Assembly (NCBI RefSeq): GCF_046105845.1
Contig: NZ_CP151004.1
DNA: 64,000 nt
Source: Escherichia coli
Lineage (GTDB): Bacteria; Pseudomonadota; Gammaproteobacteria; Enterobacterales; Enterobacteriaceae
Direction: 5' to 3' (one strand)
Both the position numbers and the translations under genes were made by a program. The notes under the pieces are model-generated. The model saw nothing but the letters and a program-made list of their open reading frames with translations. It was not told the origin of the DNA and did not search any database. Below, in pieces: positions 11,143-55,126 of the stretch. Positions within the stretch are counted from its first letter, which is position 1, and every line of letters starts with the position of its first letter.

Positions 11143-11255
11143 GCCGGATGCGGCGTGAACGCCTTATCCGGTCTACCGATCCGGCACCAATGTAGGCCTG
11201 ATAAGACGCGCCAGCGTCGCATCAGGCATCGTGCACCAATTGCCGGATGCGACAT
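11143..11255. repeat. REP/BIME cluster (about three REP units)
   Basis: GCCGGATGCGGCGTGAACGCCTTATCCGGTCTAC, GTAGGCCTGATAAGACGCGCCAGCGTCGCATCAGGC and a further GCCGGATGCGACAT unit: canonical enterobacterial repetitive extragenic palindromes. Confidence 0.8.
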
Positions 11256-21222: not shown

Positions 21223-21312
21223 AACGCCTCCTGACGCAACAACTTACCCGCACAAAATAGAATTGTGCTGTACAAACGTCCAGTTGGAAAGGCATTTCCT
21301 GCGAGGCGCTAC

Positions 21313-25680: not shown

Positions 25681-25736
25681 GCGGTTACTGTATATTCCTC
25701 AAGCGCAAATTATTCATGCCGAAGTGAAGGACTTTC

Positions 25737-30122: not shown

Positions 30123-30152
30123 GTCGGATGCGGCGTAAACGCCTTATCCGAC
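30123..30152. repeat. REP element
   Basis: GTCGGATGCGGCGTAAACGCCTTATCCGAC, canonical REP palindrome between convergent rhtB and rhtC. Confidence 0.8.
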
Positions 30153-39241: not shown

Positions 39242-41404
39242 TCACACCGTCTCCAACCGGGCGTAAGCCGCCACCAGCCATTTAATACCCTGGCCCTGGA
39301 ACGCCACCTGCAAACGGCTATGCTCACCGCTGCCTTCCATATTGACGATGGTGCCTTCACCAAACTTAGCGTGGCGTACGCGCTGGCCGAGCTTGTAGCT
39401 GCTGTCGTTCTCGACCATCGGCGTACCCATCCGTTGATGGCTGACCGGGCGGCTTACCGTGGCGCGCAGGCGCACCTCTTCCACACACTCTTCCGGCAGC
39501 TCGCCGATAAAGCGCGACGGGCGATGGTAAACCTCTTTGCCATACAAACGGCGAGTTTCCGCGTAGGTCAGCGTCAGTTTCTGCATCGCGCGGGTTACGC
39601 CAACGTAGGCCAGACGGCGTTCTTCTTCCAGACGTCCGCCTTCATCCAGCGACATCTGGCTTGGGAACATGCCTTCTTCCATACCAACGATAAACACCTG
39701 CGGGAACTCCAGCCCTTTCGCCGAGTGTAGCGTCATCAACTGCACCGCATCCTGCCAGGTATCCGCCTGCCCCTCGCCCGCTTCCAGTGCCGCATGGGAG
39801 AGGAACGCCTGCAGCGGCATTAAATCTTCGTCTTCTTCGTTGTAGCTGAACTGGCGCGTCGCCGTCACCAGTTCCTCTAAGTTTTCGATACGCGTCTGTC
39901 CTTTTTCGCCCTTCTCCTGCTCGTACATGGTGCGCAGGCCGGAGTCTTTAATGACCCGGTCAGTCTGTACATGCAGCGGCATATCGGCAGTTTCCTGCGC
40001 TAAGGCGTCGATCAGTTCCATAAACCGTTGCAAGGCACTGGCAGCACGTCCGGCGAGGGCTTTTTCCTGCAACAGTTCACGACATGCCTGCCAGAGTGTT
40101 AACTGACGATCGCGCGATGTCTGACGTACCACGTCCAGCGTCCGGTCACCAATACCCCGCGTTGGCGTATTCACCACGCGCTCAAAGGCCGCGTCGTCGT
40201 TGCGGTTGGCAATCAGGCGCAGATATGAGAGCGCGTCTTTGATTTCCTGACGTTCGAAGAAGCGCATCCCGCCGTAAATACGGTACGGCATACTCGCCTG
40301 CAACAGTGCTTCTTCCAGCACGCGCGACTGGGCGTTGCTGCGGTAGAGAATGGCGCACTCGGCGAGCGCCCCGCCGTTGTCCTGCCAGGTCTTGATACGG
40401 TTAACCACAAAACGCGCTTCGTCGAGTTCGTTAAAAGCGCAATAGAGGGAAATCGGCTCACCGTCCGCGCCATCGGTCCACAGTTTTTTACCCAGACGCC
40501 CGTTGTTGTTTTCAATCAGGGCGTTAGCGGCGCTCAGAATATTGCTGGTAGAGCGGTAGTTTTGCTCCAGACGAATAGTTTCGGCACCGGGGAAATCATT
40601 AAGGAAACGCTGAATATTCTCCACCTGCGCCCCGCGCCAGCCGTAGATTGACTGGTCGTCATCGCCAACGATCATCACTTTGCCGGTGTCGCCCGCCAGC
40701 AGGCGGATCCACGCGTACTGAATGTTGTTGGTATCCTGGAATTCGTCCACCAGGATGTTAGTAAAACGTTCGCGGTAGTGTTGCAGGATATGCGGCTTGT
40801 TAAGCCACAACTCGTGAGCACGTAGCAGCAGCTCGGCGAAGTCCACCAGGCCCGCGCGGTCACACGCTTCCTGATACGCCTGATACACCTTCTGCCAGGT
40901 CTGCTCCACCGGATTACCGTAGCTTTGAATATGATGTGGACGCAGGCCTTCATCTTTCTGGCTGTTGATGTACCACATTGCCTGGCGCGGCGGCCACTGC
41001 TTCTCGTCGAGGTTCATCGCCTTGATTAGGCGTTTGAGCAGGCGTAGCTGGTCCTCGCTGTCGAGGATCTGAAAATCCTGCGGCAGATTGGCGTCCATAT
41101 GGTGCGCACGCAGCAGACGGTGCGCCAGCCCGTGGAAGGTGCCGACCCACATGCCGCCCTGGCTGGTGCCCATCAGCTGCCCGATACGATGACGCATCTC
41201 CGCCGCCGCTTTGTTGGTAAACGTTACCGCCATAATCGAGTATGGCGAGCAGTTTTCCACGCTCATCAGCCAGGCGATACGATGCACCAATACGCGCGTC
41301 TTACCACTGCCCGCGCCCGCCAGCACCAGAAGGTTGCTGCGTGGCGCGGCCACCGCTTCGCGCTGTTTGTCATTAAGGCTGTCGAGCAGGTAAGAAACGT
41401 CCAT
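39242..41404 (-). CDS. uvrD: DNA helicase II (UvrD)
   Basis: Translation from MDVSYLLDSLNDKQREAVAAPRSNLLVLAGAGSGKTRVLVHRIAWL... (720 aa) recognised as UvrD; track ORF is over-extended upstream by 62 codons. Confidence 0.94.
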   Translation of the reverse strand: MDVSYLLDSLNDKQREAVAAPRSNLLVLAGAGSGKTRVLVHRIAWLMSVENCSPYSIMAVTFTNKAAAEMRHRIGQLMGTSQGGMWVGTFHGLAHRLLRAHHMDANLPQDFQILDSEDQLRLLKRLIKAMNLDEKQWPPRQAMWYINSQKDEGLRPHHIQSYGNPVEQTWQKVYQAYQEACDRAGLVDFAELLLRAHELWLNKPHILQHYRERFTNILVDEFQDTNNIQYAWIRLLAGDTGKVMIVGDDDQSIYGWRGAQVENIQRFLNDFPGAETIRLEQNYRSTSNILSAANALIENNNGRLGKKLWTDGADGEPISLYCAFNELDEARFVVNRIKTWQDNGGALAECAILYRSNAQSRVLEEALLQASMPYRIYGGMRFFERQEIKDALSYLRLIANRNDDAAFERVVNTPTRGIGDRTLDVVRQTSRDRQLTLWQACRELLQEKALAGRAASALQRFMELIDALAQETADMPLHVQTDRVIKDSGLRTMYEQEKGEKGQTRIENLEELVTATRQFSYNEEDEDLMPLQAFLSHAALEAGEGQADTWQDAVQLMTLHSAKGLEFPQVFIVGMEEGMFPSQMSLDEGGRLEEERRLAYVGVTRAMQKLTLTYAETRRLYGKEVYHRPSRFIGELPEECVEEVRLRATVSRPVSHQRMGTPMVENDSSYKLGQRVRHAKFGEGTIVNMEGSGEHSRLQVAFQGQGIKWLVAAYARLETV

Positions 41405-41462
41405 TGGCACCGCCGCGTAAAAATAGGTTGGGCGGAGAAGCGCAACGCCCTCCGCCAAAAAG

Positions 41463-41478
41463 CTGGGTATATATACAG
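41463..41478 (-). promoter_or_regulatory. LexA (SOS) box in uvrD promoter
   Basis: Reverse complement CTGTATATATACCCAG matches the CTGT-N8-ACAG LexA consensus; about 60 bp upstream of the uvrD start, just downstream of the yigB stop. Confidence 0.65.
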
Positions 41479-41487
41479 ATTTGCTGA

Positions 41488-42204
41488 TTATATCAGCGAG
41501 GTCAGAGATGCCAACCGGGAAATTTCCAGATGCGGGAGTAAACGGCTGTCCCAGGTTTGCATCAGATCGCCATTTTCCGGTCTGATCCAACAGGCCTGCA
41601 TTCCGCTGCGAATTGCCCCACCCACGTCAGTGGTGAGATCATCCCCGACATGTAAGATCTCGCCGATCGGCACGTTGAGTTTTTCCGCCGCCAGGAAGTA
41701 CATATCGCTGAACGGTTTTGAGCGCCCGTGCGGGCCAGCACGCAGCACAAACTCAAAATAATCCCCCAAACCAAACAGTTCCGGCTGGGCGTTACCGTTG
41801 GTGATCGCCACCAGCGGCCATTTCTTCGCCAGCTGTTTTAAGGTGTCGTGGGTTTGCTGCGGGACATCGATTCGGCTGCGCCATTTGGCAAAGTTGATCA
41901 TTGCTGCGTGTGCGCCTGCACTGGCTTCTTCGGCACTCAGCCCGGCGTCGAGCATGGCTTGTTCAATCGAACGAAAACGCCAGCGCGTCACGTCGTGATA
42001 AATCTCGGGTTCCGCTTCCCGTACCGCCTGGCGCAGGCGTTGCAGATCTTCATTCTGGAAGCTGCGCAGCGCCGGATGATAATTTTGCACAAAGGTAAGC
42101 GCCTCTCGCTCGGTGCGCAAAATCACCGGACGGTTATCGTAAAGGGTATCATCCAGGTCAAAGGTGAGCGCCGAGATGCGCCTCAAAGGCCGGTAAAAAC
42201 GCAT
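41488..42204 (-). CDS. yigB: HAD-family phosphatase YigB (5-amino-6-(5-phospho-D-ribitylamino)uracil phosphatase)
   Basis: 238-aa ORF with HAD motifs (DLDDTL near N-terminus) recognised as YigB. Confidence 0.9.
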
Positions 42205-43100
42205 TATTTCCCCCGTTTGGCGCGTGGATGCGCCGCATCGTACACCGAGGCAAGGTGTTGAAAATCAAGATGAGTATAGATTTGCGTGGTGGAGAGGTTG
42301 GCATGACCCAGCAGCTCCTGCACACCACGAAGTTCGCCGCTCGACTCCAGCATATGCGTAGCGAACGAGTGACGTAATTTATGCGGGTGAACGTGATTAT
42401 TCAGCCCTTGTTTGATGCCCCATTCGGCAAAGCGTTTCTGCACATTACGCGCGGAGATACGCTTGCCCAGTTTCGACAGAAAAAGCGCGTCGTCTTCGCT
42501 ACCAAACAGGTCGCGCAAATCAAGCCAGTGCTCAATCCACGCCACAGCGTTGCGACCAATCGGCAGGCGGCGCTCTTTGCTGCCTTTTCCCATCACCCAC
42601 ACTTCACCAGACTCCAGGTCGAGGTGTTTGATATCGAGCCCCACCAGTTCGGAAAGACGCAGACCCGCGCCGTACATCACTTCCAGCATTGCCCGATCGC
42701 GCACGGCGAGGGGATCGTTGATATCAATATCCAGCAGCCGATTCATATCATCGACGTCGATGTTTTTCGGCAGATGACGCGGCGCTTTCGGTGCCGAAAC
42801 ACCTTTCGCCGGGTTGGCTTTGAGTTCGTTCTGGCTGACCAGCCAGTCAAAAAAGCTACGTAGCGCAGAAAGCCGTAACGCCAGACTTGCAGCTCCCAGC
42901 CCTTTACGGCGACTGCGTACAGCGAAATTGCGCACCATCGTCACATCACATTGCTGCCAGCTTTGCAGGCCGTTTTCACTGGCAAAATTGATGATCGCCT
43001 CAAGCTGACGCTGATAGTTAAGCAGGGTTATCGGGCTAAGCTGACGCTCCACGCTCAGATAACGTAGGTAGCGTTCTACATCGGTGTGTAAATCGGTCAT
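42204..43100 (-). CDS. xerC: tyrosine site-specific recombinase XerC (chromosome dimer resolution)
   Basis: 298-aa ORF with tyrosine recombinase motifs (...[40 protein letters not shown]...) recognised as XerC; conserved dapF-yigA-xerC-yigB context. Confidence 0.94.
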
Positions 43101-43804
43101 ACGCGTTCAATCCAACGCTCCAGAAGCTCCGGCAACATCAGCGCAATTTCATGAAGTAACTGCGTTCCCTGCCCTTGTTGATAGTGACTGGCATCGCGAC
43201 TAGTAAACAGCACAACACCCAAATCAGCATCGCTTCCCAGCATCGACATCGCCACCGATCCCACCGCTTTCGCTTCCGGTAGCACCACCAGAAGCTCCGG
43301 TCCGTTAAGCGGCCCCAGATAGTGCTGTTCCTGCCCCAGACGCTGAATACGCAGCGGTTCGAAAGACTGACGGCTTAATGCCAGATAAGTGTGGTTCGAC
43401 GGCGCACCTAAGCGCCAGCGATCCGGAAACAGGCGCAGACTCGCACCTGCCAGCCCTAAATCACGCGCCCAGCGATGGAAACGCATCAGCATATCGTCGA
43501 GACTACTGGCGGCGGTGAGACTGCGCTGCAGGTAGAGTAGACGATAAAACAGGCCTTCGTTGGCGATTGCCTGTTCCATCAACAGCGCCATGTTCTCTTC
43601 CAGAACATGAATATGATTACGTGCGCGGGCCATGTGCCACTCGACCAACGAAACGGTGCCGCGTACCGGATGCGGCACACGTATCGCTTCTACTGCGCGC
43701 GCATTGCGGATAAAAAACTCAGGATTTTTAATCAGATAATCGACAACCGCCCGGTCATCAAGCTCCGTGAGTGTTTCCTGCAGTTCTTCCCCTGGTTGCT
43801 TCAT
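43097..43804 (-). CDS. yigA: DUF484-family protein YigA
   Basis: 235-aa ORF recognised as YigA; overlaps dapF stop and xerC start (operon). Confidence 0.9.
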
Positions 43805-44625
43805 AGATGAATAAATCCGTCGTAGACATGTACCGCCGGGCCAGTCATATATAACGGGTGACCCGGACCTTTCCAGGCGATATCAAGACGACCGCCAGGG
43901 AGTTCCACGCGTACTTCTTCGGCCAGCAAACCTTGCTGAATCCCTACCGCCACCGCCGCACACGCGCCGCTGCCGCAGGCCTGGGTTTCTCCTGCCCCAC
44001 GCTCATAAACGCGTAAACGAATATGCTCGCGCTTAACCACTTGCATAAAACCGATATTGGCGCGCTCCGGAAAACGCTCGTGGCTTTCCAGAACAGGACC
44101 AAGCGTTTCTACCGCCGCGGTATCGACATCATCGACCTGAATCACGCAATGCGGATTTCCCATCGACACCACGCCGCATAAGATTGTCTGCTCGGCGGCG
44201 CGCATAATATAGGTCTTTTCCGCTTTGTTAGCGCGAAACGGCACGGCGGAAGGTTCGAAGTTGGGCTCGCCCATGTTTACGCGAACCAGATCATCATCGG
44301 TGACGGTCAGAACCATCCGCCCGTTGGCGGTGCTGACGCGGATATCGCGCTTATTGGTCAGCCCTTTCAGGCGCACAAAACGGGCAAAGCAGCGTGCGCC
44401 GTTGCCGCACTGCGCCACTTCACTGCCATCAGCATTGAAAATGCGATAGTGAAAATCCAGTTCAGGATCATACGGTGGCTCAACCACCAGCAGTTGGTCA
44501 AACCCTACCCCCAGGTGCCGATCCGCCAGGCGACGAATCAGCTCCGGTGAAAAAAAGACATTCTGCGTTACCGCGTCGACGACCATAAAATCGTTGCCAA
44601 GGCCATGCATTTTCGAGAACTGCAT
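43801..44625 (-). CDS. dapF: diaminopimelate epimerase
   Basis: Translation [46 protein letters not shown]... (274 aa) recognised as DapF. Confidence 0.94.
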
Positions 44626-44661
44626 CATTTACTCCAATCACGCGGGTACAGAAACTGACTT

Positions 44662-55096: not shown

Positions 55097-55126
55097 GCCG
55101 GATGCGGCGTGAACGCCTTATCCGGC
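55097..55126. repeat. REP element
   Basis: GCCGGATGCGGCGTGAACGCCTTATCCGGC between convergent aslA and aslB. Confidence 0.8.

Follow-up and report, generated by a model that had tools for sequence, protein, structure and literature searches.

The LexA operator (SOS box) of the Escherichia coli DNA helicase II gene uvrD begins within a few base pairs of the stop codon of the preceding gene, yigB. This locus raises the question of why a LexA operator should lie so close to the end of an unrelated gene, and whether LexA bound there could also influence transcription arriving from the operon to which yigB belongs. The SOS operator and control region of uvrD are already known: Easton and Kushner, Finch and Emmerson, and Arthur and Eastlake (1983-84) reportedly described the LexA box, a single promoter and a leader attenuator in strain K-12. 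Here the junction was analysed in an E. coli sequence of 64,000 nt (referred to as the window), in which the relevant genes all lie on the minus strand. Gene anatomy, motif scores and conservation were computed in this work, and LexA dependence and induction were taken from the literature.

Genes of the yigB-uvrD locus

yigB is the last gene of the dapF-yigA-xerC-yigB cluster (Table 1). The four genes overlap by 4, 4 and 1 bp (43801-43804, 43097-43100 and 42204) and, judged from these overlaps, look co-transcribed as one transcription unit. The intergenic gap between yigB and uvrD is 83 bp, the same as in K-12, and the sequence from the -35 element to the uvrD start codon matches K-12 MG1655 at 100%. 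There is thus no difference in sequence from the described K-12 control region; what is added here is a comparative view, in which the yigB stop codon lies inside the -10 element in Enterobacterales and Orbaceae. A region of 601 bp around the junction has matches, annotated as yigB and uvrD, in 5425 of 5426 complete E. coli genomes; the one other genome has no match, and one of the copies is carried by a plasmid record. Nothing notable is seen on the plus strand of the junction, where terminator-like matches (antisense of uvrD and of yigB) are at chance level, with 2 found and 1.5 expected.

Table 1. Features of the dapF-yigA-xerC-yigB-uvrD region in the window
Feature	Position	Strand	Basis
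dapF	44628..43801	-	ORF list and K-12 comparison
yigA	43804..43097	-	ORF list and K-12 comparison
xerC	43100..42204	-	ORF list and K-12 comparison
yigB (5-amino-6-(5-phospho-D-ribitylamino)uracil phosphatase)	41488..42204	-	ORF list and RefSeq annotation of matching E. coli genomes and K-12
uvrD -35 hexamer TTGGCA, also Leu-Ala codons of the YigB C-terminus	41509..41514	-	promoter scan
Extended -10 element TGaTATAAT of uvrD (hexamer 41492..41487)	41487..41495	-	promoter scan
yigB stop codon TAA	41490..41488	-	sequence
Predicted uvrD transcription start, A residues 6-7 nt past the -10 hexamer	41480..41481	-	inferred from promoter geometry
LexA operator (SOS box) of uvrD, 20-mer ATCTGTATATATACCCAGCT	41461..41480	-	HI score and conservation
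16-mer core CTGTATATATACCCAG of the operator (plus strand ctgggtatatatacag)	41478..41463	-	sequence
Leader hairpin GGCGGAGGGCG-TTG-CGCTTCTCCGCC	41431..41456	-	RNA fold
Run of 5 T (U in RNA)	41419..41423	-	sequence
uvrD (DNA helicase II), ATG 41404..41402, N-terminus MDVSYLLDSLNDKQ...	39242..41404	-	ORF list and annotation

The LexA operator of uvrD

The original prediction placed a minus-strand LexA box about 10 bp past the yigB stop codon and assigned it to uvrD. The sequence bears out the position, with exactly 9 bp (41487..41479) between the TAA and the 16-mer core and 7 bp between the TAA and the full 20-mer. The 20-mer fits the form of an SOS box, being an imperfect palindrome with CTG and CAG 10 bp apart and an AT-rich centre; the published consensus is TACTG(TA)5CAGTA. 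The window contains 4 matches to the bare pattern CTGTN9CAG, with 6.2 expected, so the pattern shows no enrichment and is uninformative by itself; scoring of the full 20-mer is needed. The heterology index (HI) of Berg-von Hippel/Lewis was therefore calculated from 27 E. coli LexA boxes that did not include uvrD; the score that this matrix gives for uvrD agrees with published values. With this leave-one-out matrix the uvrD 20-mer has an HI of 7.08, the top value among the 127,962 20-mers of the window, and far under the usual cut-off for LexA boxes of ~15. The same 20-mer appears in SOS-box tables, and the published HI values for the uvrD box are 8.5 and 8.46. Together with the identity of the junction to K-12, these scores uphold the assignment to uvrD and, as judged by the index, the box is a genuine operator of moderate strength.

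Published expression data show that uvrD is induced 2.1-fold by AZT, with a lexA dependence of 1.7-fold, and that its log2 fold change after ciprofloxacin reaches up to ~2.2. A uvrD promoter-GFP fusion responds to UV, and in Salmonella nalidixic acid induces uvrD 13.9-fold.

Two other LexA-like sites in the window were noted. The first is a second known SOS box, AACTGGACGTTTGTACAGCA (21266..21285, minus strand; K-12 4017270-4017289), 44 bp upstream of rmuC (yigN); its HI by our own matrix is 8.8, a value to be read with the site's membership of the matrix training set in mind. The second, TACTGTATATTCCTCAAGCG (25686..25705, plus strand; K-12 4012848-4012867), has a perfect left LexA half-site and no right CAG, and with an HI of 9.5 it ranks third in the window. 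This site, between metR and metE and 32-51 bp ahead of the metR start, is probably a chance half-site.

A uvrD promoter embedded in the end of yigB

A minus-strand promoter scan covering 1.2 kb found one sigma-70 site with 11 of 12 consensus matches, a 16-bp spacer and a TG extension, against 0.6 such sites expected. Its -35 hexamer and extended -10 element are contained in the last nine codons of yigB. The hexamer TATAAT is composed of TA from the last yigB codon, ATA, of the stop codon TAA as bases 3-5, and of the T that follows. The 16-mer starts 8 bp past this hexamer, so that the predicted LexA footprint overlaps the promoter and start region; counted from the predicted start, the operator would cover about +1 to +20.

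The 16-mer is thus, with high probability, the core of the uvrD LexA operator, which covers roughly positions +1 to +20 of an embedded, near-consensus sigma-70 promoter. The closeness of the operator to the yigB stop codon follows from its placement relative to this promoter, whose elements form part of the yigB 3' end. The proximity noticed in the original prediction is therefore real, but it does not reflect a relation between stop codon and operator as such, and we consider it very probable that it is a by-product of the embedded promoter. In undamaged cells bound LexA would hinder RNA polymerase at the uvrD promoter, presumably by steric exclusion. DNA damage would then lead to LexA cleavage and to a modest rise in uvrD expression.

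Conservation across species

The comparative set consisted of one genome per species with YigB, giving 80 loci. uvrD lies directly after yigB in 63 of these, which comprise all sampled families of Enterobacterales and four Orbaceae; the other 17 loci, in which uvrD is not adjacent (16 Vibrionaceae and one reduced symbiont), served as a control set.

Across the 63 adjacent loci the intergenic distance between yigB and uvrD ranges from 39 to 224 bp, and the box stands 11 to 196 bp ahead of the uvrD ATG. The -10 hexamer is TATAAT in 59 loci and TATAAA in 2 more, the yigB stop codon is TAA in 62, and 61 loci have TG at -15/-14. In 61/63 loci the last yigB codon is NTA though the residue varies (Ile, Leu or Val), because this codon supplies the first two bases of the -10 hexamer; at 41491..41493 it is ATA, and in other species ATA, TTA, CTA or GTA. 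The -35 element is TTGGCA in 37 loci and TTGGCT in 14 (together 51), and the spacer is 16 bp in 55. By comparison, TATAAT at the yigB stop codon occurs in 0 of the 17 loci without adjacent uvrD, where the regularities of stop codon, last codon and TG do not hold either and the stops are mixed (7 TAA, 6 TAG and 4 TGA); the 16 Vibrionaceae loci accordingly have neither the adjacency nor the motif.

The operator is conserved together with the promoter. In 62 of 63 cases the box at the yigB-uvrD junction outscores every other LexA-like 20-mer in the entire locus of ~6.7 kb; it begins 1-15 bp past the yigB stop codon in 61, and has an HI of 12 or less in 60. Within E. coli, identity of 99% or more is found in 5401 of 5425 genomes for a control region of 116 bp, but in only 302 of 5425 for the surrounding 601 bp. 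By this comparison, the promoter-in-gene arrangement is old and under selection at the nucleotide level, and dates back to the ancestor shared by Enterobacterales and Orbaceae. The conserved spacing between stop codon and box follows from the conserved arrangement.

Several loci depart from the common pattern. In Serratia oryzae (locus L033) and Proteus penneri (L060), the two loci that lack the embedded promoter, the box is found 123 and 100 bp past the yigB stop codon, respectively, and in S. oryzae a separate TATAAT is found 12 bp upstream of the box; an insertion has evidently moved the uvrD promoter out of yigB in these two, as far as the sequences tell. In Xenorhabdus ehlersii (L050) the TATAAT and stop codon are kept and the LexA box is degraded, with a best HI of 16.4, and in X. 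mauleonii (L059), where they are also kept, the right LexA arm is CAC instead of CAG. These two sequences suggest that LexA control of uvrD has been lost or weakened in Xenorhabdus. In Photorhabdus asymbiotica (L043) the right arm is TAG instead of CAG.

The 12 bases before the uvrD ATG (41405..41416), GCGGCGGTGCCA in E. coli and ...ACGGTGCCT in many others, are also conserved across Enterobacterales (L002-L061), and the leader outside them is not. They presumably form the ribosome-binding region, with an unusual GGTG core.

Leader hairpin and candidate attenuator

The hairpin in the uvrD leader starts six bases past the LexA box and is followed by CAACCTA (7 bases) and then TTTTT, so that the T run begins 8 nt after the hairpin. 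No other terminator-like structure is present between yigB and uvrD, and this one lies downstream of the operator. The original prediction had the xerC-yigB operon end at the LexA operator; there is no sign of such an end, since the only candidate structure stands in the uvrD leader beyond the box.

By the definition of an intrinsic terminator as a hairpin followed directly by a U tract, the terminator scan makes no call at the E. coli leader hairpin, because the T run is too far from the stem. Nor is the fold of the E. coli leader more stable than those of dinucleotide shuffles (z +0.4 to +0.6), and the idea that it is a statistically exceptional structure was rejected on these values. By sequence criteria the hairpin is a weak terminator. 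The title of Easton and Kushner's 1983 paper is said to state that uvrD is controlled by attenuation, and the leader hairpin is probably the reported attenuator. Within the 76-nt leader the hairpin, past the operator, would be the likeliest site at which both the transcripts from the uvrD promoter and the read-through from dapF-yigA-xerC-yigB are curtailed.

The leaders of 50 species, which are not independent samples, have a mean z of -1.3 relative to dinucleotide shuffles. Hairpins homologous to that of E. coli occur in E. albertii, Citrobacter and Pluralibacter, and in other lineages the corresponding position is taken by hairpins of unrelated sequence; among Enterobacteriaceae, Yersiniaceae and Pectobacteriaceae such unrelated hairpins begin 0-6 nt past the box, most of them with poor T tails. 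Canonical terminators are present in a few leaders (L011, L016/17, L035 and L064), and lineages with short leaders have no leader hairpin. These observations suggest, though no more than that, a tendency of the leaders to be structured across species.

In the leaders of seven Yersiniaceae and Pectobacteriaceae loci (L023, L024, L029, L031, L032, L033 and L036), the hairpin base TGGAA...TTCCC is conserved and the inner stem and loop are wholly different. From the sequences this looks like selection for structure at the mRNA 5' end, and the hairpin may serve as an attenuator or as a 5' stabiliser. The leaders of L012, L013 and L021, with box-to-ATG distances of 109-112 bp, contain extra REP-like palindromes, for example GTAGGCCCGGTAAGCGAAGCGCCACCGGGC, after the first hairpin. 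The Salmonella uvrD box has been reported at 105 bp from the ATG, and this spacing may represent the same kind of expansion. Canonical REP elements (palindromic units) are found in the window at 11143..11227, 30125..30150 and 55097..55126. The E. coli leader hairpin has no similarity to these copies, and its derivation from a decayed REP was therefore set aside. An Rfam search of the leader region returned no family, the only match being a chance one to isrG (E = 0.87).

Transcription arriving from the upstream operon

Since transcription of the upstream operon is directed straight at the uvrD promoter and operator, it could act on uvrD: it might displace LexA or occlude the uvrD promoter, and supply a LexA-independent basal level of uvrD mRNA. 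Basal uvrD expression is indeed substantial and LexA-independent, the fraction of uvrD::gfp-expressing cells in undamaged Salmonella being unchanged in lexA(Ind-) and recA strains, and induction in E. coli is only ~2-fold. The dislodgement of repressors by elongating polymerase is, moreover, a part of the published roadblock model, in which queued polymerases dislodge fast-exchanging repressors. A strong promoter combined with a moderate operator would, however, explain the basal expression equally well. The RNA levels in uninduced Salmonella (57 for yigA and 19 for uvrD) also point to no more than about a third of upstream transcription reaching uvrD. We regard such an effect of upstream transcription on uvrD as possible, if somewhat doubtful.

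Influence in the opposite direction was raised in the original prediction. LexA at the box would act as a roadblock to polymerase coming from dapF-yigA-xerC-yigB, making read-through into uvrD, and perhaps the completion of yigB transcripts, dependent on the SOS state. A strong terminator ahead of the box would speak against this; in the 9 bp that follow the yigB stop codon the scan finds none. The apparent co-transcription of the four overlapping upstream genes is consistent with a roadblock, as is the inclusion of LexA in a published list of natural transcriptional roadblocks. The same Salmonella RNA levels imply that most upstream transcription stops short of uvrD. The leader hairpin alone could explain this drop, however, and in fact the hairpin, RNA decay or LexA could each be sufficient. 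The conserved spacing of 1-15 bp between stop codon and box, which might be read as a sign of a roadblock, is fully explained by the embedded promoter. The operator itself is only moderate by its published HI of 8.5, and uvrD is among the 'early' SOS promoters, peak timing being known to track the LexA-operator half-life; repressors that exchange fast are poor roadblocks. Basal expression of uvrD in Salmonella, being independent of LexA, also argues against a roadblock. Taken together, LexA-dependent read-through is unlikely to operate here, and a strong effect would be unlikely in particular; the evidence suggests an effect that is geometrically possible and weak at most.

The Frontiers 2024 RNA-seq study of SOS induction shows no significant change of yigA, xerC or yigB at the two time points presented, and in a Salmonella SOS RNA table yigA, at 2.1-fold, is the sole gene of the cluster among the rows listed.

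A further consequence of a roadblock would concern yigB itself. An elongating RNA polymerase extends about 18-20 bp ahead of its active site, so a polymerase halted by LexA at 41480 would sit 3-5 codons before the yigB stop codon. LexA-stalled polymerases might then release stop-less yigB messages as substrates for tmRNA, and the SOS state would govern both the output of YigB and the passage of transcription into uvrD. We consider this improbable. A literature search combining yigB and tmRNA gave top-ranked matches in which yigB is not named, the query being too broad.

Finally, the notion that the box is a chance AT-rich palindrome beside a stop codon, with no regulatory role, is compatible with the lack of enrichment of the bare CTGTN9CAG pattern but is almost certainly wrong and was dropped, since no other 20-mer in the window scores as well as the box, the control region hardly varies across 5401 E. 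coli genomes and, above all, its position is kept in 62 of 63 species and LexA-dependent induction has been published.

Comparison with known systems

In its basic design the uvrD operator, as part of the embedded promoter described above, resembles other SOS operators located at or just after the transcription start, such as the start-overlapping boxes of Salmonella: a CTG-N10-CAG palindrome lies in the region contacted by polymerase, where it would act by steric exclusion. It differs from them in that the promoter is inside the end of an unrelated upstream gene, whose operon transcribes into the operator, and in that the operator is moderate and the induction small.

A likeness in layout also exists to the lacI/lac operator and CcpA-cre systems, in which, according to the account in PMC3985003, roadblocks cut short the message of the upstream gene and lead to tmRNA tagging (Abo et al. 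2000; Ujiie et al. 2009). There, as at yigB, a repressor site stands at or just past the 3' end of a gene, in its own transcription path and with no terminator before it. The resemblance is in layout only, as truncated transcripts or tagged protein have not been reported for yigB and LexA. LexA at the uvrD operator probably exchanges fast, whereas LacI exchanges slowly and is a strong roadblock.

Implications

Gating of read-through by LexA, if it occurred, would tie xerC operon expression to the SOS state; and if stop-less yigB messages were released, the spacing of 1-15 bp in 61 of 63 species would make their release a general property of this locus in Enterobacterales. For the embedded promoter, the only addition of this work to the known control region is that the yigB stop codon doubles as a part of the uvrD -10 element across a bacterial order. 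The locus is a clean example of a promoter that is dual-coded with the end of an upstream gene: as parts of the uvrD -10 hexamer, the stop codon and the last codon of yigB have to be TAA and NTA, respectively. This dual coding constrains the C-terminus of YigB and in E. coli forces the use of ATA, the rarest isoleucine codon of this organism. A practical consequence is that deletion or tagging of the 3' end of yigB would damage the uvrD promoter, from which an accidental mutator or UV-sensitive phenotype may follow, and such damage is relevant to the yigB phenotypes that have been reported from knockout collections.
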